This document shows positions 2,372-59,721 of a stretch of DNA of 64,000 bases, in pieces. Numbering within the stretch: the first letter of the stretch is position 1; each line of letters begins with the position of its first letter. Both the position numbers and the translations under genes were made by a program. This stretch comes from Callorhinchus milii (taxonomy: Eukaryota), in assembly GCF_018977255.1 (NCBI RefSeq), contig NW_024704742.1, forward strand, positions 10,046,001 through 10,110,000, read 5' to 3'. Below the pieces are notes generated by a model. It searched no databases. It was not told the origin of the DNA and was given only the letters and a program-made list of their open reading frames with translations.

Positions 2372-2897
2372 TAACATAGGAACAGGAGGAGGCCATTCAG
2401 TCCCTTGAGCCTGTTCCTCCATTCTATTAGTTCATGGCTGATCTGTACCTCAAGTCCAAATATCCCTTCTTGCCCCATATCCATTTATACCCTGACCTAA
2501 CAAATATTTATCCACCTCAGTCTTGAAGATGTGAATGGATCCAACATCCACAACCTTTCGGAGGAGAGACAGATTTCCATTACCCTTTGGGTGAAAAACT
2601 GCCTCCTGATTTCATTCCTAAATGGCCGAGCTCTAATTTTAAGATTATTCCCCTTGTCCTGCATTCCCCTACCAGAGGAAATAGTTCCTCTGTATCTACC
2701 CAATCGAACACTTTTATCATTTTAAACACCTCAATCAGACTCACGGGAATAGAGAGCAAGTTTATGCAACCTGTCCTCATAATTTAACCCTTTAAGCCCT
2801 GGTATCATTCTGGTGAATCTGCGTTGCACCCCCTCAGGGCCAATATTTCTTTCCTGAGGTGCGGTGCCAAAACTGAACACAATACTCCAGATGGGGT
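2372..2897 (-). mobile_element. CR1 LINE 3' fragment
   Basis: Minus-strand peptides EGVQRRFTRMIPGLKGLNYEDRL, FFTQRV and TRG are typical CR1 ORF2 C-terminus, followed by the CR1 3' end. Confidence 0.9.
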
Positions 2898-3060
2898 TTC
2901 TACTGAAGTTGTCTGTTTTGAAAAGGTCACAAAGTCCTGAAACAAGTTGACAAACTTCTTTTGTTTCTTTGTGGAAACCCAGTCGAGAGCTAAGCCGAAT
3001 GTTGGTCATGCATAGGTGAGGTGGACTGTATTGGTCTTTGATACTCTACATTTCTACATT

Positions 3061-3412
3061 TAGCTCAGTGCTTAGAGCACTCACCTCGCAAGTGAGAGAC
3101 CTTGATTAGATTCCCAACAGGGCGAAACGTTGGGCAAGTTTCCTTACTCCACACGTCTCTGTTTACCTAGCAGCAAGTAGAAACACAGTTGTTAGTCGAA
3201 TGGCGGATCGCTTTTCTGGAGGTAATAATTCCTTCAAAAAAAATAATAATTTGGTCACTCATTCTACCACTGTTTGTGAGACACTGCTCTGTGTAATTGG
3301 CTGTGGTGTTTTGCCCACAAAATTCACTTTACAGTATATTCTGTGAAGCGCTTTGAGATGTCTCAAAGACGTGATAAGAGTTAGGTCAAAATGCAAGGAT
3401 TATTATTATTAT
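3061..3412 (+). mobile_element. tRNA-derived SINE (major family), near full length
   Basis: A-box TAGCTCAGTG, B-box-like region, shared family body, and tail ending gcaaggattattattatt. Confidence 0.9.
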
Positions 3413-4194
3413 TTCTACTATCCTATGATGTGCAGTCCGATGGAATTTGCACCATAGGCTGTGTGTGCTGGTGTTTATAAACAACTACACAAAATAAAAA
3501 GTTTGCTGAACTATTTTTGAGGAAAACCATGCTCTTGTAAATAGATCTGCTCTACATTCCATTCTGATGACTGCTTTCAAGTAACTCGCTGTTACTGAGA
3601 TCATTACATTATAGAAGCACCAGAAAATCGCACTGGTGACAACAGAGTACTGGGAGAATGCAAAGCATGTCCAGGTTCACAAAAAGAATTGGGGAACAGG
3701 TTTACGCCAAGCTCGTGTTTATCAAACATTCCTGACTAGAGATCATAACACACAATGTCCTCCAAGCCAATTTGAGAACAAGTAAATGCCCCTCTCTTGA
3801 TAGGATTCCTAGCTGCATAGTAACTCAATATCCCTATTTCCCGAAGAGTTACCTGCCAGGAAACATTTGCTAATAGGATTAAGTATCAGACGGTGAAATA
3901 TGCATCTCAATTAAAAAGAAAACATTGTTTTATATGAGGGTTTTGGAGGGTAAGTTTACTCTACGAGGTGCCTCAGTCATTACTTCTCAATTTTATCAAT
4001 GGAAATACCTGTACGTTAATCATTGCCTCTCTCTTGAACCCTTTACTGATGCTTGGATTTTATCATCTCAAATGTTGGGTGTCAGTTTGGCTCAAACCAC
4101 TGCCCATTACAGATCCACTCAGCCGGCAATCTCTGCTTCTAATTCACCATCGCCCATCTCTGTATCTGTATTGCTCTCTTGTCAAGCATTCCAC

Positions 4195-49820: not shown

Positions 49821-52800
49821 ATGTGGCCAGTGTTTATACATCTAAGATACTGGATCTATGATGCGGGATACCTTTGTGTCCAGCACTGTCTCATTGATAA
49901 GAGACAAGGACAAAGAGCTTTCCGAATTGCTCAATGTTGCGATTATGACCCACACGGTCCTCGGGAGGCCCAGGTTTCATAAACCTTCAATGCTCTGGTT
50001 CCTACCCTGCGTGAGGGGTGCGATATAAATGCAAGTTGTTGTTGTTTAGTGCTGCCTTACCAGTCCTCAACAGGCCAACAATTGGAGGGTGGTAAAATGT
50101 GGCCCCAATTCAATCAATTTCAGCTAACGTTTTTAACTCGATAAATTCAACTGGGGTCAAACACCAGTGTGAGCCATAGCATAAAGGAGAAAAAAGGCTT
50201 GATAGAGATTTAACACAAGGTGTCCTAACACATGTAAACCGTGAACACTATTCAAAAAGAGAAGGGGGTTTCCTCTTGTGCTCTGACCCTCAATTCGCCA
50301 CTGGATGAAATTGGTCATTCACTTCCTGACTGTTTGTGGAGCATTTCTGTGCACAAATCGGCTGCTATGTTGGCTTACAAATACACAGTCACTGTACTTT
50401 ACAATATATCCTTCAAGATATCCTCTCAATATGAAATATTTTATCAACAACAACTTACATTTATATAGCACCCTTCGGAGTGGGGTAGGGTCTCACAGCA
50501 CTATCAAATCCAAGGAAGATTTATTAATAATCCCTCAATAATCCCATGCTAACCCCGATAATGATGTCTCATAGCACAAGCATGACATGGTCAAGATAAA
50601 GCTAGACTGTTTAACTCAACTACTAGATACTGATACTCATGCACTAACATATTAATAAACCAGGGTATTGCGAAAAAATCTTTGTATACAGAATGCTCTA
50701 CCACAAACAGGTAATGGAAATCTGTCAATTCCCGGCAGGGCGAAACGATGGGCAAGTTTCCTTACTCCACACGCCTCTGTTTACCTAGCAGTTAGTAGGA
50801 ACCTAGTTGTTAGTTGATAGGCGGATTGTTTCCAGGGTAATAATCCCTTCAAAAATGTTAAAGATAAAAATAATTTGGTCCGTCGTTCCACTCTGTTTGT
50901 GGGTCACTGCTGTGCGCAATTGGCTTCCGCATTTCGCCCACAAAATATACAATCAATTCACTTTACACTATATTCTGTGAGATGTCTCAAAGACATGATA
51001 GACGGTTGAAAAGGAAGAATATTTAAAGATGTGTGGGGAGCGAGCAGGAGAGTGGGGAAAAAAAACCAGCAACCACGGATGTGTGCGATGGACTGAAAAT
51101 CATGTCTCTGTGCTGTACGTAACATGGTTTGATTCTTGGAATACAAGGCTGCTGGAGGAGAGGGTCAGCCTCTGGCATATCTCCAGAGTTGCCAGGAGTG
51201 AGACAGTGAATGCACCGTATACAGCAGCATTTACTCACTCAGCAGATAAGACAACTCAGTCAGTGGGACTGACGCACATTGCGCACCATAGCCCAGCACA
51301 GCTGCAAGAAAAGACTGATCCACAAGTGCAACAAGCAGCTCAGTCCCATGAAAAGGAGACCTGTTTAGGGAACCAGTGCATCGTTAGAAGCCATCAGCTC
51401 TTATCAGGATTGCTCTCTTAACATCCGCTTGGGTTTCAATTTCTGAACGCCAACTGTCTGCTGCTATATTACACAAGTAGCTCCGAATTATAAATATGTC
51501 ATAGCACACAGCAAAAATGGGTAGATTTTACCACAGCCCTCCTTATTCTTTGAATGACGTTAACAACACATACCCATGAGTAAGGTCACCTCAGCATCTC
51601 GTAGACACACCACAGATGCCGACTTTTCGTGGCTTTTCAGACAGAACTGTCAAATTATTCTGCCCCCAGACAGATAAAATAATAGTGCTGCTTTCCCTCA
51701 CCACACGCAAGCACACATACACATGGGCCAAACAGTCCCATCCACTACATTTGCAGCTCCAAGCTTCACTTGTCCTTCTTCCACTAGCATCAGTCTTACC
51801 CCAAATGACTCCTGGACCAAACAAATAAAGGCCTTCCCTTGCTTACAGTACTTACAACACCACATATATTTTAAACCGGTAAGGTCTGGCGATTTCTTTC
51901 AAATAATAATCCTTACATTTGATAGAACGCTCTTCATGTCGGGAAGTCGTCTCAAAGTGCTTCAGAGAAAATACTGTGACGTGCACTAAACTGTATATTT
52001 AGGCGAAAGCAACAGCCAATTTGCTGGCAGCACAAATGTCCCAAAATCACCATGGATTGAGTGACCAATTTTATTTGGGGGTTGTTGACAGCTTCTCAAT
52101 AGTGCCATGAGATCTTTAATAATAATAATAATCCTTGCATTTGATATAGCACCTTATCACATCTTCAAGGTGTCCTAGTTGTACGCAGCAATGTCCCACA
52201 AACACCCATGATCAATTTTTTTTTGAAGGAATTATTACCCCCGGAAAAGCAATTGACCAATCGACTAACCACCGGGTTCCTACTTACTGCAGAGGTGTGT
52301 GGAGTTAGGGAACTTGCCAGGAATCAAACCTAGGTCTCTTGCGTGCGAGGCGAGTGCTCGAACCACTGAGCTACAGGACTCCACAATGCCACCTGAACAT
52401 GTAGACAAGATCAAGTTGACGTGGACGCAAGAGTGCTACCACCCGAGCCAGGCTGACACAACCTTTTGAGAGCATTTAATCCTACTTAATATTTTATTCA
52501 GCACATTGTTCTGGATCAAATCCTGAGTTCAGAATCTGTGTCACTACCAGGAAGGCTTCTCCAGTAACTGGCAACTTGAAAGATGATCCTCTCCTGGTCG
52601 TAAGAGGAATGGGAGCCCCAGAGGCAAGCCGATTTTCTACGCACAGTGGACGCAGACTGAGTCGGCAAATTGAATAGTGAGTCAGATAGCTATGACGCCA
52701 AGAAATTGATTAAGGAATATGAGAAATATATGAACTAAATAAATTGGCGTAAAGATGGATTGACAACGTCTTTCTCTCGAGTCCTGTAGCCAGGAGTCCA

Positions 52801-53182
52801 CCAGAAGAGAAGCATGAAAGTGGAATATTACACCACCGCCATTCTTAAACATTTGAACAAGGGATTAAGTGAGATCTTCCTGTGGTTCACCAGGAAAACA
52901 GGAAGAGGCGACTATGGGAACATCAAGCCTGTTCTAACAGTTTATTAGATTTTGGACAATCTTTAATTCTAATGCCCCAAGCTTTCATTGTACCCTTTAT
53001 AATGATATTACGAACATCAGTTCTCAGGAGACACATCTGGCAAAGCCTGGAAGGTCCACAGTTGTCCACAGTAACACAGTGGATGGTTGACCCACCCAGT
53101 CTGTCTGGCTCGTCAATGAGACGTGGAGGTGTACACATGTAAGCCAAAATCCCGACAGGTAGGGGAATCCCAACATAAATAA

Positions 53183-53392
53183 AAGACAAAATACCGTAGA
53201 TGCTGGAGATTTGAAATAAAAACAGAAGTCGCTGGGAACACGCAGCAGGTCAGGCAGCATCTATGGAGAGAGGAAAATGAGTTAACGTTTCAGGTCTATG
53301 ACCTTTCATCAGAACTGAAACGTTAACTCATTTTCTTCTCTTCATAGATGCTGTCTGACCTGATGCGTGTTCCCAGCGACTTCTGTTTTTAT
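53183..53392. mobile_element. Penelope-like element remnant (inverted pLTR pair)
   Basis: ~78-bp inverted arms (53216-53293 / 53315-53392); direct repeat atccca(a/g)cataaataa at 53167-53182 and 53391-53406; hammerhead core between the arms. Confidence 0.8.
53279..53317 (-). ncRNA. Minimal type I hammerhead ribozyme motif
   Basis: Minus strand reads cAGUU CUGAUGA a AGGUC aua GACCU GAAAC GUU AACUc: both core boxes, a 5-bp stem II, a palindromic ACGU stem III and a 4-bp stem I. Confidence 0.75.
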
Positions 53393-55059
53393 CCCAGCAT
53401 AAATAAGGTTTGTGAAACATGACAGTACCAATCTAGACACTCCCTTCGTTCAGCAGGCACCAGTCTGCTTCACATCTCCCGCCCTATCAGCCAAACCATC
53501 AGCCAATCTTCCCCAGTTCAATGGAACTCCATCCCGGAGTACCTCTGACTTGCCCCTTCCTCACCTCTTTCAAGGTTCATCTCAAGACCTTCCTCTTCAA
53601 CCATGCCATTGGTCATCTTTGCCCTCCCCATTCCCCCCCTTGGCTCACCCCCTCCTCTCCCACAGGTGCCAAGAGGCTTGGGACAGCTTCCTGATATGAG
53701 AAGCACATTTGTATAAGTCTACATTTGTACTATAGTCATAGGTAGTTTGTGTGTCAGCCTGGCTCAGTGGTAGATTCTCGCCTCTGAGTCAGAAGGTTGT
53801 GGGTTCAAGCCTCAGGTCGGGACCTGGAATCACAAAATTACATTTAAAGAGCGCTTTTCCCATCGGGAGGACAAGCAAAAGCGCTGGAAGGTCAAGGGAG
53901 ATAATAATAATAATTCTTGCATTTGATATAGCGTTTTTCACGTCGGGAGGACGTCCCAAAGCGCTTCACAGAACACACTGTAAAGTGAATTGACTGTACA
54001 TTTGTGGGAGATCAGGACTGAGCTCGGCTGGGATGAACCCTGTGATTTAATAGTCTGCCTTCACTTTCCTTTCCTGCTCTGCACATGAACAATGAACACT
54101 TTGGTGATGTGCCAGAGGTCAGTCATGCTAATTAAAAGGTTAGGTGCTTCGGCAGAGGCAGAATCAATATTAGTTTCCAAAAGGATCCACCACTGTTTTG
54201 TGAACATTGTTGTTCACAAATAGCTGCCGTGTTTCGCCCACGATACATAGTTAATTCATTTCACAGTATATTCTGTGAAGCGCGTTGAGACGTCTCGAAG
54301 ACACGATCCGGCGCTATATCAAATGCAAGGATTATTATGATTATTATCGTTATTATTATTATGTCTAAGCAGGTGTAATTTGTACAGGTATGGGGAAAAC
54401 GTTGGCAAATGGGACTGAAAACATTGCTCTTTCAAACAGCCAGCACAGACATGACAGGCCACACGGCCTCCTCTCACACTGTAAAAGTCCAGGTTTTATG
54501 AAGAGCCCAATCTGCCCAGCTCGGCAGAACTCCACCCAAAGTCCCCCCAACTCACCCCTGCCTCACCTCTTTTAAGGTTCATCTCATGACCTTCCTTTTC
54601 GACCATGCCTTGAGTTATTACTGGCTCCATGAAGAGTCACTGTAATGTGTGGCTCTTACAGAAAATATTAGGAAGAGAGGGGAGGGAAAGAACTGAATCA
54701 CTCCAGAGCGAAAGACTGTTACTACTTAATAAAAGTGTCTGCCATAAGCACAGTGGTTTGAAACAGTTACAGGGACTGTTGCTTTTTGTAGGACTATTCG
54801 TTCTACACAGCCTGGTGATATCTGTGTATCAAGTCCATTAGCCTTTGGGGTATTATAGAGATACCGCTAAGATACAGGACTCTTTCTGGAGTCCTGTGAA
54901 ACGTTGGTCACGTTTCCTTACTCCACACGCTTGCGTTTACCTACCAGTAAGTAGAAACCCGGTTGTTAGGCAATTGGCAGATCTTTTTTCCGGGGGTAAT
55001 AATCCTTTCAAAATAAATAAAACAATTATAATTTGGTCACTCAATCCATGACCATCTTG

Positions 55060-55770
55060 TGTGGTGTTCCTCAGAGCTCTGTCCTCGGATGACACCCAAC
55101 TCTAACTCTCTGCTTCCACCCTGGACTCCAGGACTACTGGCATCCTAACCGACTGTCTGTCCGACATCAAGTCCTGGAAGAGGGACAACTTTCTCCCACT
55201 CAATGTCAGCAAGACCGAGGCCCTCCTGATTGGCTCGCGCCAGCGCCTCTGCACCTCGGGCACTGGCAGCATGAGCCTCCACGGCTGCACACTCAACCTC
55301 ACTAAGCCAGTCAGGAACCAGTCTTTGTTTGACCTTGAACTGTCCTTTCTCCCCCACATCCGCGCCGTGACCGGCACTGCCTACCACCACCTCCGCAATA
55401 TTGTCAGGTTCCGCCACTGCCTCACCCCTCAGGCTGCCGAAACCTCACCCACGCATTCGTCACATCAAGGCTCAATTACGGGAACTCCCTCCTCATCGGC
55501 CTTCCCAACTCTTCCCTTCACACGGTGCAGATCATCCAAAACTCTGCAACTTGTGTACTCTCACCACCAGGCTCCATGACCCCATTACTCCTACCCTCGC
55601 CCGACTCCACTGGCTCCCCATCCCCAGAGGATCGAATTCAAGATCCTCGTTCTCACTTTCAAGGCCATCCATGGCCTTGCCCCTCCTACCTCGCTGACCT
55701 GCTGACTCCCTACCAACCTGCCCGCTTTCTCCGTTCCGCGGGCTCCGGCCTGCTCCATGTCTCCATCCTG
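55060..55770 (+). mobile_element. L2 LINE RT fragment lacking its 3' tail
   Basis: GVPQ-like start, LNLTKPVRN, HHLRNI and ARLHWLPIP motifs. Confidence 0.9.
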
Positions 55771-56583
55771 AATAATCCAAGCGGTAAGTGACAAAGCATG
55801 CACAAGGGTTTCGGCTGCATTTGGGGTAAGGTTCGGTCAGAGGTGGGCAATGTGACGGAGGTGGAAGAAAGCAGTCCTGGTCAGGGACCAGATGTGGGGA
55901 AGGAAGGTCAGTTGGGAGTCGAACCAGATGCCTAGTTTGCACACTGGTTCGGTGAGTCTGAGGGAGAGCTCAGAGGGGTTGAGGAGTTTAGATCTGCAGG
56001 ATTGAAGACATTGACAGGAGCCAAGGAGTATGGTTTCCGTCTTGCCCATATCCAGCTGCAGTTTACACTAATCCAGGCCTTGATGTCTGCCAGACAAGCT
56101 GATAGAACATCGGCAAACCTGGAGTTGGTACTAGAGGAGGCAAAGTAGATTTTGTGTTATCCGCATTTGGAAGTATACTCCGTGTCCGTGGATGACATCG
56201 CTCTGAGGAGCTTATAGATAAGGAAAAGAAGAGGATCAAGGATGGAGCCCTGAGGTACTCCACATGTGACCGGGTGGGGGTGAGAGGAGGAACCATTTGC
56301 TGAGATGAAATGGAGGTGGTTGGTTAAGTAGGACTCAAACCAACTGAGTTAGATGAGGGAGAAGAGCTGATGGTGGAAGATGGTTCGAACACGGCAGAGA
56401 GATCCAGGAGGACGAGGAGGCAGAGGGAGCCCTGGTCACAGATAGAGAGAATGTCGTTTGTGACTTTGACAAGTGCTGTGTCTATGTTGTGGGCAGTCAG
56501 GGCGAAAACCAGACTGCAGGTACTCAAGGACGGAGTGGAAGGAGAGGTGTGACCAAAGTTGACCTGCAACAATGTGTTCCACG

Positions 56584-57473
56584 TGTGAGAAAATAAAATC
56601 AGCCATAATCCGTTTGCAACCGGATATTTGACTGTTTATTATTATTCGTTCGTTATTCCCCAATATCCCGATGGGTCAGACCAAAGGCCGGTACAATCAA
56701 CAGATCTTATAACAGAACAATACCACCGTAGATATCTCGAGTGGAACACTGTGTCTTTGCAGCACACAAGCTTGATTCTTCATGCTTTCAGTCTTCTTGC
56801 TTACAGCTTTCAATCTTCCATCTGATATCCTCAGTCTTAGTGTTTCTAGCTCTCAGTCTTCCATCTCCCGTACCCTTGTCTCCGCAGCCCGGGACGGCTC
56901 CATCTCCCGTATCCTTGTCTCCGCGACCCGGGATGGTCCCATCTCACGTACCCTTGTCTCCGCGACCCGGGATGGCCCCATCTCCCGTACCCTTGTCTCC
57001 GCGACCCGGGATGGCCCCATCTCACGTACCCTTGTCTCCGCGACGCGGGATGGCCCCGTACACAAAGTTATCGTAACTCTTATACTGATGTTCATCCAAT
57101 CATGGTGCGGACATTAGATCACCTGGCCGAAATCATGCTGGGTCATCATGGGGTGTACGTGCCTCAGCACATACACATACACATTGTCCTTAAGACCCCT
57201 GTTATCTGATGCTTGTTACTTTGTTAGGTGGGATCATTAGTACATTCCTTTTAAGTGACTGGTTATTTCTTATCAGTATCCCGGGATGGAACCAAGGTCC
57301 TCTAATTTAAGCAACTTGCTTGTTAGCTGCTATTCTTGAGGGTTGCCTTTTGTTGCTCTTGAGTGTTAATCATGAGTGTCAGTCCAGTTGCCCCCCACAC
57401 TTAACTTAAAAGTTAATCCGTTCGCAACATCTATTATGATTCTAACATTATACAAAAACTGTAAATTCTAACA
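56584..57473 (-). mobile_element. Solo LTR, 890 bp (ERV- or Gypsy-type)
   Basis: Termini TGTGAGAA...TTCTAACA (7/8 inverted); 4-bp TSD cacg/catg; cleanly splits the L2 RT; minus-strand TATAA (57080-57084) next to a CCAAT box (57096-57100), and AATAAA (56635-56640). Confidence 0.85.
56861..57055. repeat. Tandem array of 5 x 39 bp
   Basis: Unit ccatctcccgtacccttgtctccgcgacccgggatggcc starting at 56861, 56900, 56939, 56978 and 57017. Confidence 0.97.
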
Positions 57474-59721
57474 CATGAATGAACAAGGAAGGGAAGATTG
57501 GAGATGGGACGGTAGTGTGAGAGATTAGAGGGATCGAGGGTGGATTTTTGAGGAGGGGTGTAATGACAGCGGTTTTCAGGGGAAGTGGAACAGAGCCTGA
57601 GGCGAGAGACTGGTTGACCATGTTGGCCAGCAGGGAGGAGAGAAGGGGGAATTGAGTGACCAGCAGCTGGGTGGGGAGGGGGTCAAGGTAGCAGGTAGTG
57701 AACTTCATCCAGGTGATTGTGGTTGGGGGAGGAGGAAGAAATGGGAGCAAAGGAGTGTAAGGAGAGGGAGTAGCAGGAGCCGTGGCGGAAAAAGAAGGCG
57801 GTGTGTGGACTGGCTGGGTGGGGTGGAAGGGGACATGGAGGGGAGGAAGATGCAACCAAGCAGATGTTTTCAATTGTTGAGGCAAAGACGTCTAGGACAT
57901 CTTTGCACTTGGCGTTTGATGTGAGAATCGAGGGGGCTTGAGGAGGTGCACGGAGGAGGTGATGGACAGTGGAAAACAGTGTCTTTAGCTCCAGGATGAC
58001 TTTGGAGTAAAAGTCGGTTTGGGCCTGTGAAAGGGAGAGGTGGTAGGTGTGGAGGTACTCGAGCCACGAGTGAATCGTGAGAACGGATTTCTGACATCTG
58101 CGCTCAAGCATTTGGGTTTGTGTTTTGAGTGAGCGGAGATGTTGTACCAGGGGGAGAGGGTGGGTTTGGAAACAATGCTGTATTTCAGGGGCACCAGGGA
58201 ATTCAAGATTGGGGAGAGACGGTCATTCAGCAGCTTGACAACTGCATCAGGATCGCTGCGGAAAGGAGGTCCGAGGAAGAGAGGGCATTTGTGAAGTACT
58301 CAGGGGGAAGCTTTTTCCAGGGACGGAAAGAAATAGTGGAGGGTTTGGAAAAGGGGAGGAGGATGTGGGAGGAGAGGGAGATGAGGAAGTGGTCCGAAAT
58401 GGCCTTGTCTGTGATTGACAGGTCGGAAATGTCAAGGCCGTGTGTGATGACGAGGTTGAGGGAGTGGCCACGGTTGTGGGTCAACGAGTTGATGTGGAAG
58501 GTGAGGTTTAGGGAGGAGAAGAGGGCAGTGAAATCTGAGGAGATGGTGCAAGGGGAGTTTAGGTGGAGTTTGAAATCACCCATTATGAGCAGCTGTTCAG
58601 TGCAGAGGGACAGTGATGAGAGGAGAGAAAGATATTGGTGAGGAAGGAGTCAGAAGGTTTTTTTTGGGGGGGCAGTAAACTAGGAGGATTTTGAAGGAGA
58701 GAGAGGAGGGATGGTAGAGGGTGAAGTGCTCAAAGGAGGAGAAACAGCCAGAGGAATAGGGGGATACACCAAGGGAAGCTTGGGAGATGAGGGCCACCCT
58801 ACCGCCACGTTGGATTGTTGTTTGCCTCCAGGATGACTTTGGAGTAAAATTTGGGGGGTGTGGTGAAAGGTGCAGCCAGGAGGGGAGGCTTCAATGAGGG
58901 GGATGGGATCACTGGGCCAGAGCCAGGTTTCTGTAAGCCCAAGAATATCCATGTGCTCATCCAGGATGAGGTCGTGGATAGTAAGGGCTTTGTTGGAGAG
59001 GAGTGGACATTTTGGAGAGAAATGCGGATAGGTTTGCTGGTGGGGAACGGCGATAGGCTGAGTGGTATAGAGAGGATTTGAGGTCGTGGGGGAGAAGTGA
59101 CCATGGTTTTTGAGGAGCAGACACTGTTTGGGAGGGTAGGCAGTGCAGATGAGGAAGGGTTAAGGGGTGTTTGTTGCGGGACGAGACGAGTACTCTAACC
59201 ACTAAGCTGCAGGACTCCACCTCATCAATCACACTGACTGTGAGTGCCTGTTGTTGGCCCATGGATTCTGATCTACTTTGTATCAAGAAATCTGAGTCAC
59301 AAACTCAGACTTGGTAAGTCCCAGATTCTACACCGGCGCTGGAAAAAAGTTTTTCCATCACCCATATTTTGCACTGAAGCTATAACATCTGTCACTACAA
59401 ACATTTCAGTCTGGATGAAGGAAGTTATAAGTGTTACGAGGCAGTTCTAACCACATGGAGAGCAGAGCCCTGTCCCTTGATTGCATCACATGGTGCAGAG
59501 TAGCTGAGCTAACACTTGGCAGTCACTGTATGCACGTGGAGGGAATCTCTCAACAGGGTAACAAATCACCTTGTTAAACATTACTTCGGCTCAAGCAGAT
59601 GATTGGCAAATGCAGAGACAGGACAGTCAGGCAGGTTAAAGAGAAGCACAAAGCACTCAGTCCAACAGCCAACACTCACAAATTTTACTCTCATGGAGAC
59701 AGAAAGGATGCCAGAAGCCTC

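Follow-up and report, generated by a model that had tools for sequence, protein, structure and literature searches.

A probable Penelope-like fold-back insertion with a minimal hammerhead motif at its apex in Callorhinchus milii

The window analysed here, a 64-kb stretch of Callorhinchus milii contig NW_024704742.1, carries at 53183-53392 an insert of about 208-210 bp, the range being set by a 2-nt overlap with the repeat that flanks it. The insert contains two inverted arms (53216-53297 and 53311-53392) of 82 nt that are 94% complementary and stand 13 nt apart, and it lies between the two copies of a 16-nt direct repeat (53167-53182 and 53391-53406) that are identical at 15 of 16 positions. 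A sequence-only reading of the same DNA had described an insert of about 210 bp within a 16-bp direct repeat with one mismatch, and both features are as it stated; the arms that it put at about 78 bp are present but somewhat longer. The element has no open reading frame, and the window contains no second copy of it; a lone inverted pair and one hammerhead make up the locus. Its parts, which we assign below to the 3' end of a Penelope-like element (PLE), are as follows.

53167..53182, no strand: target-site duplication (TSD), left copy; direct repeat family D1, 15/16 identical to 53391-53406
53183..53215, minus strand: 33-nt tail, extending the hammerhead-bearing copy at its 3' terminus; outside the inverted repeat and absent from the other arm
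53183..53316, minus strand (sense): PLE 3'-end copy 1, with the helix I 5' strand, hammerhead, 68-nt arm and tail
53280..53316, minus strand: minimal type-I hammerhead motif, by pattern match and positions derived from the sequence
53315..53390, plus strand (sense): PLE 3'-end copy 2, inverted and tail-less; second arm of inverted repeat I1
53391..53406, no strand: target-site duplication, right copy of the direct repeat

Copy 2 begins within the GAAAC box, so that its arm extends about 8 nt upstream of the cleavage position. Four sequencing runs covering 50500-56500 yield contigs that end at repeat boundaries (X2, 52974-53154; X1, 53394-53586), with very high word depth over the repeats and repeat-driven joints, and are uninformative on expression, strand, cleavage and editing; none of the base differences called from these runs, whose coverage is repeat-driven, lies inside the element.

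The hammerhead can be read directly from the minus strand. Helix I (AGUU/AACU, 53316-53313 and 53283-53280) has 4 bp, and is followed by the CUGAUGA box (53312-53306), a single unpaired A (53305), a helix II of 5 bp (53304-53300 and 53296-53292) with a 3-nt loop (53299-53297), the GAA (53291-53289), a palindromic ACGU (53288-53285) and U17 (53284), with the predicted cut between 53284 and 53283. The conserved core (C3 U4 G5 A6 N7 G8 A9, G12 A13 A14 and an H17 other than G) is complete at 53312-53284, and the locus also has the unpaired nucleotide between 9 and 10.1 and the palindromic 15.1-16.1 segment without a loop 3 that mark the class. A departure is seen at 10.1-11.1, where the G-C of the class is replaced by A-U in the window copy and its subfamily, so that pairing is kept and identity changed. 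The pattern CTGANGA...GAAACGT occurs once on the minus strand of the window (53312-53285), against 0.01 occurrences expected from 100 shuffles. Together, the pattern match and the direct reading confirm the earlier description of a minus-strand core with a palindromic ACGU stem III, and the motif fits the minimal type-I, putatively dimer-acting hammerheads of PLE pLTRs. Within 53100-53480 none of the hammerhead families of Rfam gives a match at a cut-off as loose as E <= 10 in the covariance-model search that the sequence-only reading had proposed, a negative result all the same, albeit one expected for a motif without helix III. At gathering thresholds, Rfam returns only nine tRNA-model matches in the whole window. 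The miRNA and snoRNA matches at the locus (E <= 10) are all sub-threshold, generic long-hairpin matches, and we reject a miRNA precursor, the best such match being MIR8643 with 54 bits against a gathering score of 135.

Across 33 aligned copies 89.7% of helix I and helix II cells are paired, compared with 12-51% when the partner strand is slid. The 10.1-11.1 pair is GC in 14 copies, AU in 11, GU in 4 and other in 3, and is the sole two-sided exchange; because it separates two subfamilies, the window's own and a sister subfamily that is linked to an endonuclease and has G-C, it counts effectively as one event. Both boxes are intact in 17 of the 33 copies and ACGU in 15, the remainder showing mostly CpG-type changes, and the complete motif survives in only three, the window copy among them.

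The window element belongs to a large dispersed family. A search of the ~1-Gb genome gave 3661 first-look candidates, and scoring 40 of these gave 80 matches on both strands, most of which cover both arms and which, leaving aside the window's own locus and its exact duplicate, are 81-91% identical to it. A duplicate at a distance of 67 kb, with 99.75% identity, may represent a true duplication or an artefact of the assembly. The copies analysed here are the best-scoring ones, as opposed to a random sample. Each of 26 aligned copies has flanks of its own. A TSD of at least 10 nt is present in 16 of 25 copies, compared with none of 25 in a control with mismatched flanks, and TSD length among copies is about 10-19 nt. 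A positional check places the tail at a single end in 23 of 25 copies, and none of the 25 has it at both. An inverted partner accompanies 13 of the 40 best 3'-end matches and was found at 5 of 12 further places; all 13 partners stop at or before position 73 of the 101-nt query and are accordingly tail-less, and a fold-back with its apex in the hammerhead region is the commonest form among these best matches. The window locus is not a unique device: the insertion process that made it has left near-identical products at many other places.

Within this common plan the two arms vary. Apex junctions differ between copies in their end points and filler bases, and of the two arms the one with the tail is longer in 17 of 25 copies and the one without it in 8, both sequence variants being represented. 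In essentially all miniature fold-backs examined, one arm spans the entire motif, ending in most copies within about 28-37 nt upstream of the cut site, and the other ends inside the motif (-3 to -21); summed arm extensions cluster around 40-48 nt. The tail-less arm is truncated at its outer end in at least six copies (L008, L020, L026, L071, L074 and L079), two of which, L008 and L020, retain their TSD. Read by eye, the sites that distinguish the subfamilies change together in both arms of a given copy. Arm-to-arm identity averages 0.910 within copies and 0.897 between copies, values so close that this comparison does not discriminate between a fold-back made anew and one inherited from a master.

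Linkage to coding sequence points to the parent. A genome search with PF01541 (GIY-YIG) gave five matches, including an open reading frame at locus L036 that scores 26.4 bits against a cut-off of 22.6. Using the endonuclease reading frame of one PF01541 match as query gave 2913 candidates, of which 150 were scored, giving 151 matches at E <= 1e-5. Of 30 fetched loci, 27 have arm sequence with 79-89% identity on the endonuclease strand, at a distance of 67-459 nt downstream, and the same identity range holds for copy 1 of the window (53183..53316) against the sequence downstream of the endonuclease region; of the other three loci, two have arm sequence only upstream and inverted and one has none. 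A reverse transcriptase domain (RVT_1, 2827-3483 on the minus strand, E 5.9e-30) lies upstream of the endonuclease match (1968-1669, minus strand) at L067, the one locus at which it was seen. These loci belong to the sister subfamily (helix II G-C, 79-89% identity), no copy of the window's own subfamily linked to a reverse transcriptase or endonuclease having been found among them. A further GIY-YIG locus (L035/L037) was rejected as parent: it represents a different PLE family and has no similarity to the window element. The tail is optional in the parent family, as about half of the endonuclease-linked copies, judged by eye, end before it, and these tail-less 3' ends fall at the same place (about +66 to +75) as the outer end of the arm without the tail. 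Four endonuclease-linked loci (L039, L054, L058 and L062) have longer inverted copies, which, with a longer natural reference as query, reach 95-144 nt or more upstream. At the level of sequence these data support the view that the arm represents the 3' terminus of a retroelement family that is abundant in the genome and encodes reverse transcriptase and GIY-YIG endonuclease. The Penelope-like origin proposed at the outset is supported by this linkage together with the one-sided tail, the inverted copy and the variable TSD.

These observations suggest an account of the locus. The arms are homologous to a PLE 3' end, belong to a family with TSDs and a tail on one side, and meet at junctions particular to each copy. 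We consider it quite probable that an endonuclease-positive PLE left the locus as an insertion that was dead on arrival, made of two extremely 5'-truncated copies of the 3' terminus placed head to head. Copy 1, on the minus strand, would start a little upstream of the minimal hammerhead and extend to the distal end, with the 33-nt tail; copy 2, on the plus strand, would start within the GAAAC box and extend to the proximal end, which has no tail. By the most likely route, the PLE protein would nick both target strands and prime reverse transcription from both. The distal start site would give rise to one cDNA and the proximal start site to the other, and these short products would be joined within the self-complementary hammerhead region. 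The variety of apex junctions among copies makes it probable that the fold-back formed during insertion. Two features weigh against this account: the outer-end truncations of the tail-less arm described above, which a pure two-start-site model does not predict, and the regular end of the long arm, which it leaves without a cause. The hammerhead itself would serve the element's own life cycle, through RNA processing in multimeric transcripts, and not the host, and the present function of the locus is most likely none.

Much of this account agrees with what is described for PLEs elsewhere. PLE insertions are reported to be 5'-truncated, to have an inverted truncated copy beside them and to carry on one side a tail of 30-40 bp (Craig et al. 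2021, PMC8557442), and a purified PLE protein, PAc, cleaves and extends both strands in vitro, with reverse transcription starting at two adjacent sites that delimit the tail (PMC11167929); the formation of PLE inverted structures is called mechanistically undefined in the portions of this literature we draw on. The window locus shares with the insertions described in these passages the 5' truncation, an inverted 5'-truncated copy abutting a direct one, a one-sided tail (33 nt here), a hammerhead about 70-100 nt upstream of the reverse transcription start sites, and a parent with reverse transcriptase and C-terminal GIY-YIG endonuclease. Unlike them, both of its copies are cut down to about 75-135 nt, with no open reading frame and no direct pLTR; miniature fold-backs predominate among the examined copies of its subfamily; and its apex falls inside the hammerhead, a position that those passages do not describe. 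Among the papers listed for hairpin or inverted PLE hammerheads and for PLEs of cartilaginous fish, none was found on a family of fold-backs with a hammerhead at the apex.

The inversion also invites comparison with another retroelement. In L1 twin priming, reverse transcription is primed from both strands of the target, and the single insertion that results, flanked by its TSD, contains an inverted segment. The fold-back resembles these products in the priming on both strands that we propose and in having its inversion within a single TSD-flanked insertion; it differs in that L1 inverts a different, upstream part of the RNA, whereas both arms here cover the same 3'-terminal region, which must therefore have been copied twice.

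The hammerhead shows a similar mix of likeness and difference. The sections of Cervera & de la Pena (2014, PMC4209133) that concern PLEs describe minimal dimer-type hammerheads in their pLTRs that cleave poorly in vitro. The window motif has the same type-I topology, CUGANGA and GAAA boxes and short 4-bp helix I, the same lack of loop 3 with a palindromic A15.1-C15.2-G16.2-U16.1 that implies action as a dimer, and the same position in the PLE terminal repeat region; many dispersed, decayed single copies, with some opposite-strand pairs 100-700 bp apart, are likewise described in those sections. Compared with the hammerheads presented there, the window's subfamily has A-U in place of a conserved G-C at 10.1-11.1, a helix II of 5 bp as against 6-8 bp in Schistosoma and Drosophila, and two copies that abut with one complete hammerhead at the hairpin apex, and its motif is known from sequence while theirs were assayed for cleavage. 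Cervera and de la Pena reportedly described, in 2020, animal non-LTR retrozymes as short non-coding hammerhead sequences derived from PLE pLTRs. Retrozymes consist of head-to-tail tandem repeats with a hammerhead in each and give circular RNAs (as outlined in a preprint, Li et al. 2026, 10.64898/2026.07.22.740005). The window element is like those outlined there in being a short, non-coding, hammerhead-bearing derivative of a PLE pLTR that is mobilised non-autonomously, and unlike them in being a single inverted pair with one hammerhead and no further copy in the 64-kb window; we therefore reject the retrozyme assignment.

Three other explanations of the locus have to be weighed. The first, which we think unlikely, holds that the 210-bp fold-back is a non-autonomous, SINE- or MITE-like unit, a few hairpin masters having been retrotransposed whole by PLE proteins so that the arms are inherited. 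The prevalence of hammerhead-apex fold-backs among the best 3'-end matches and the grouping of summed arm extensions fit such masters, and outer-end truncations of the tail-less arm resemble the ordinary 5' truncation of one long cDNA. Co-variation of subfamily-diagnostic sites between arms also fits, but is expected too when both arms are copied from one RNA pool. The variable apex junctions, together with the location of the hammerhead on the tail arm in some copies and on the tail-less arm in others, would call for many masters, and a perfect 82-bp hairpin RNA would presumably be a poor template for reverse transcription.

The second, which we regard as very improbable, is that the hairpin regulates a host pre-mRNA from within, either because the ribozyme cuts the transcript unless the opposite arm sequesters it or because the dsRNA stem serves as an ADAR substrate. 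The window motif is among the few complete ones, and RNA folding predicts sequestration: minus-strand RNA is predicted to form one long hairpin (-133.2 kcal/mol, z = -18.4 relative to shuffles), the hammerhead-competent fold is predicted to be 25.3 kcal/mol less stable, and core nucleotides are predicted to pair with the opposite arm at p >= 0.997. A transcript of the locus would thus be predicted to form a dsRNA stem of about 82 bp that buries the ribozyme core. Sequestration by the opposite arm, as first suggested, stands as a thermodynamic prediction, while its reading as an off switch is speculative. Against a host role, the structure is generic and repeated at many loci with unrelated flanks, its copies decay as neutral sequence does, and its loop-less helix III cannot form in a monomer at a locus with one hammerhead only. 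The host-gene exons that the sequence-only reading had placed on the same strand find no support either: neither a Pfam scan of 107 open frames of at least 95 aa in the whole window nor one of 141 frames of 45-94 aa at 46.0-60.5 kb gave evidence of a host exon, the two together returning a LINE endonuclease and two low-complexity matches and nothing else, in a coarse test that short exons would escape. The third, a relic of a cut-and-paste DNA transposon (MITE) with a hammerhead-like string by coincidence, would account for long terminal inverted repeats within a direct repeat but is exceedingly improbable and is rejected, as the termini are asymmetric (a 33-nt tail on one side), the TSD varies in length between copies instead of being fixed, two copies truncated at one end keep their TSD, the arm is the 3' end of an endonuclease-linked retroelement, and the hammerhead pattern is both rare by chance (0.01 per window) and subject to a compensatory helix II exchange between subfamilies.

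Returning to insertion by both-strand priming, we raise one further idea, on which we would place a rather small weight: the hammerhead region may itself be the place where the two cDNAs of such an insertion are joined. If so, the self-complementary helix II and the palindromic ACGU/GUUAAC segments would set the apex; alternatively, the apex might be set by a short pLTR RNA whose 5' end would lie about 35 nt upstream of the cut site.

For the host locus the insert is probably without importance, a neutral relic for which no gene context was found. For the PLE family, the G-C to A-U exchange in helix II provides modest sequence-level support for selection on the hammerhead fold in active lineages. 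The value of the locus lies in its being a compact example of the PLE insertion signature, with tail, inverted partner and dimer-type hammerhead within 210 bp. As there are many such copies, a genome-wide census could test how PLE inverted structures form and what fixes their junction, the hammerhead region or a short pLTR transcript. Should the hammerhead region prove to be the joining place, these thousands of relics would constitute a natural record of the still-undefined PLE integration mechanism.

The element is a fold-back insert whose two arms are 94% complementary across a 13-nt spacer, arranged as listed below.

Parts of the insert and its flanks (window coordinates)
53183-53392: insert, 210 bp
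53216-53297: left arm, 82 nt
53311-53392: right arm, 82 nt
53183-53215: tail, 33 nt, outside the inverted repeat
53167-53182 and 53391-53406: flanking direct repeat, 16 bp with 1 mismatch

The fold-back described in the sequence-only reading is thus present, although its arms, put there at about 78 bp, measure 82 nt; the 16-bp direct repeat with one mismatch is as that reading reported. A second copy of the surrounding 3.2 kb (window 51686-54891), L002, is found 67.4 kb upstream of the element on this contig at 99.75% identity; it reflects a recent segmental duplication or else a duplicate in the assembly. The window sequence includes 30 N.

A Penelope-like (PLE) origin had also been proposed, and it is supported. 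The Pfam GIY-YIG model matches five places in the genome. At one of them the endonuclease ORF is followed, about 100 nt further downstream, by the arm sequence in the same orientation. Searching with this ORF gave 2913 candidates, 150 of which were scored and yielded 151 matches at E <= 1e-5. In 27 of the 30 endonuclease loci retrieved, a same-strand copy of the hammerhead and arm lies 67-459 nt downstream of the endonuclease match; two loci have it solely as an inverted upstream copy, and one lacks it. At one of the retrieved loci, L067, the endonuclease is preceded on its own strand by an RVT_1 domain (E 5.9e-30). The same order, a reverse transcriptase with a GIY-YIG endonuclease C-terminal to it, is given for endonuclease-positive PLEs in PMC4209133 and PMC8557442. 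Judged from sequence, the fold-back genuinely derives from a PLE, and its minimal hammerhead motif is complete. Another contig of this genome carries a different GIY-YIG element (L035/L037), without similarity to the one in the window. On one of its strands lie two other minimal hammerhead-like motifs, separated by 1573 nt, and it apparently represents a second PLE family, one that has direct pLTRs.

Searching the ~991-Mb assembly with the element gave 3661 first-look candidates, and 40 of them, when scored, yielded 80 matches (both strands). Aside from the locus itself and its exact duplicate these are 81-91% identical, and the majority span both arms. We aligned 26 copies (25 distinct places plus the exact duplicate), which are top-scoring matches rather than a random sample. 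Flanks are unrelated in every one of them, a TSD of at least 10 matching nt is found in 16 of 25 copies (against 0 of 25 in a control that pairs flanks from different copies), and some copies truncated at one end retain the TSD. TSDs, unrelated flanks and one-end truncation are marks that point to target-primed reverse transcription and not to cut-and-paste transposition. L068, L072 and L076, which belong to the window's subfamily but are longer, have near-identical starts ~130-150 nt 5' of the cut site, and at least two appear by eye to be flanked by direct repeats; they may represent a non-autonomous element of ~250 nt that derives from a PLE and has a defined 5' end.

Craig et al. 2021 (PMC8557442) describe PLEs as showing heavy 5' truncation, an abutting inverted 5'-truncated copy, a tail of 30-40 bp confined to one end, and pLTR hammerheads; the window element shows all four in miniature. 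By script, the tail occurs at a single end in 23 of 25 copies and never at both; the two unscored copies, whose anchor was moved by indels, have a one-sided tail in the alignment. Inverted partners within 23-86 nt accompany 13 of the best 40 matches to the 3'-terminal 101 nt, and all 13 partners end at query position <= 73 and therefore lack the tail. By eye, about half of the endonuclease-linked copies also end before it.

At the tip of the hairpin sits a complete minimal type-I hammerhead motif, whose core and palindromic ACGU the sequence-only reading had recognized.

Hammerhead motif (all minus strand)
Helix I: AGUU/AACU
Core box: CUGAUGA, then one unpaired A
Helix II: 5 bp with a 3-nt loop
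Second core box: GAA
Helix III: replaced by loop-less palindromic ACGU
U17: predicted cut between 53284 and 53283

The pattern CTGANGA-N12-18-GAAACGT matches once in the window versus 0.01 expected from shuffles. The covariance-model search suggested in the sequence-only reading did not recover the motif: no Rfam hammerhead model matched the locus even at E <= 10, and the Rfam matches there are generic hairpin matches to miRNA models, far below threshold. The motif shares with the minimal PLE class described in PMC4209133 the short helix I, the unpaired nucleotide that follows A9 and the palindromic 15.1-16.1 without loop 3; it departs from that class in the identity of pair 10.1-11.1. According to the same source, minimal PLE hammerheads cleave weakly in vitro, and solely as dimers.

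Across 33 aligned hammerheads (12 fold-back, 21 endonuclease-linked), the proposed pairs form in 89.7% of cells, versus 12-51% with the partner slid. The sole two-sided change is at 10.1-11.1 (GC 14, AU 11, GU 4, other 3), where the endonuclease-linked subfamily has G-C and the window's has A-U; it amounts in effect to a single compensatory event. Identity between the subfamilies (6 versus 3 copies) is 63% in the upstream UTR, 81% in the hammerhead segment and 87% in the downstream arm. Decay is evident in individual copies: 17 of 33 retain both core boxes and 3 of 33, including the window copy, retain the full motif, and the motif's CpG sites hold many of the changes.

How the fold-back arose is best approached through its apex. 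The junction there differs in nearly every copy, with variable end points of both arms and, in several copies, a few filler bases. One arm usually reaches ~28-37 nt upstream of the cut site, spanning the whole motif, and the other ends 3-21 nt upstream of it; the tail belongs to the longer arm in 17 of 25 copies and to the shorter arm in 8. Such diversity would hardly come from a small set of hairpin-shaped masters and fits a fold-back that probably formed anew at each insertion; propagation as a unit seems improbable. Arm identity, at 0.910 within copies versus 0.897 between them, shows no real excess and is thus uninformative on this point. For PAc, PMC11167929 reports that RT starts at two adjacent internal sites, that the tail is the sequence between them, and that cleavage and extension by the purified protein take place on both target strands. 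In the simplest route consistent with these data, both target strands would be primed, one cDNA would begin at the distal start site and the other at the proximal one, and the two would be joined within the self-complementary hammerhead region. Two features fit this route poorly: the tail-less arm is truncated at its outer end in at least six copies (L008, L020, L026, L071, L074 and L079), and long-arm ends cluster.

The 210-nt minus-strand RNA is predicted to fold as one long hairpin (-133.2 kcal/mol), in which forcing helices I and II with an open core would cost 25.3 kcal/mol and G12 to U17 each pair with the other arm (p >= 0.997). The suggestion that the other arm sequesters the ribozyme is therefore right as a prediction, but sequestration follows from insertion geometry and is common to many loci, and so is no evidence of a regulatory device. 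The same-strand host-gene exons once proposed found no support in Pfam scans, which short exons would escape, of 107 frames of >= 95 aa across the window and 141 frames of 45-94 aa in 46.0-60.5 kb. These scans gave solely a LINE endonuclease and two low-complexity matches. The first of these is an open frame with an Exo_endo_phos domain (58683-59159, minus strand; E 2.5e-05), probably a LINE fragment; a tandem repeat (56730-57115) that is open in several frames on both strands produces spurious weak matches to Cytadhesin_P30 and LRRCT. None of the sequencing runs recorded as RNA contains the element's stretch. Nine tRNA-model matches of 34-57 bits lie on both strands (7520, 8298, 13453, 15518, 33004, 37053, 48378, 49455 and 52309) and resemble the head regions of tRNA-derived SINEs more than tRNA genes; two of these regions have very high word depth in all sequencing runs compared.

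The element is most likely inert at its present locus, and the regularities of the apex across the family are the sole part that might interest specialists.
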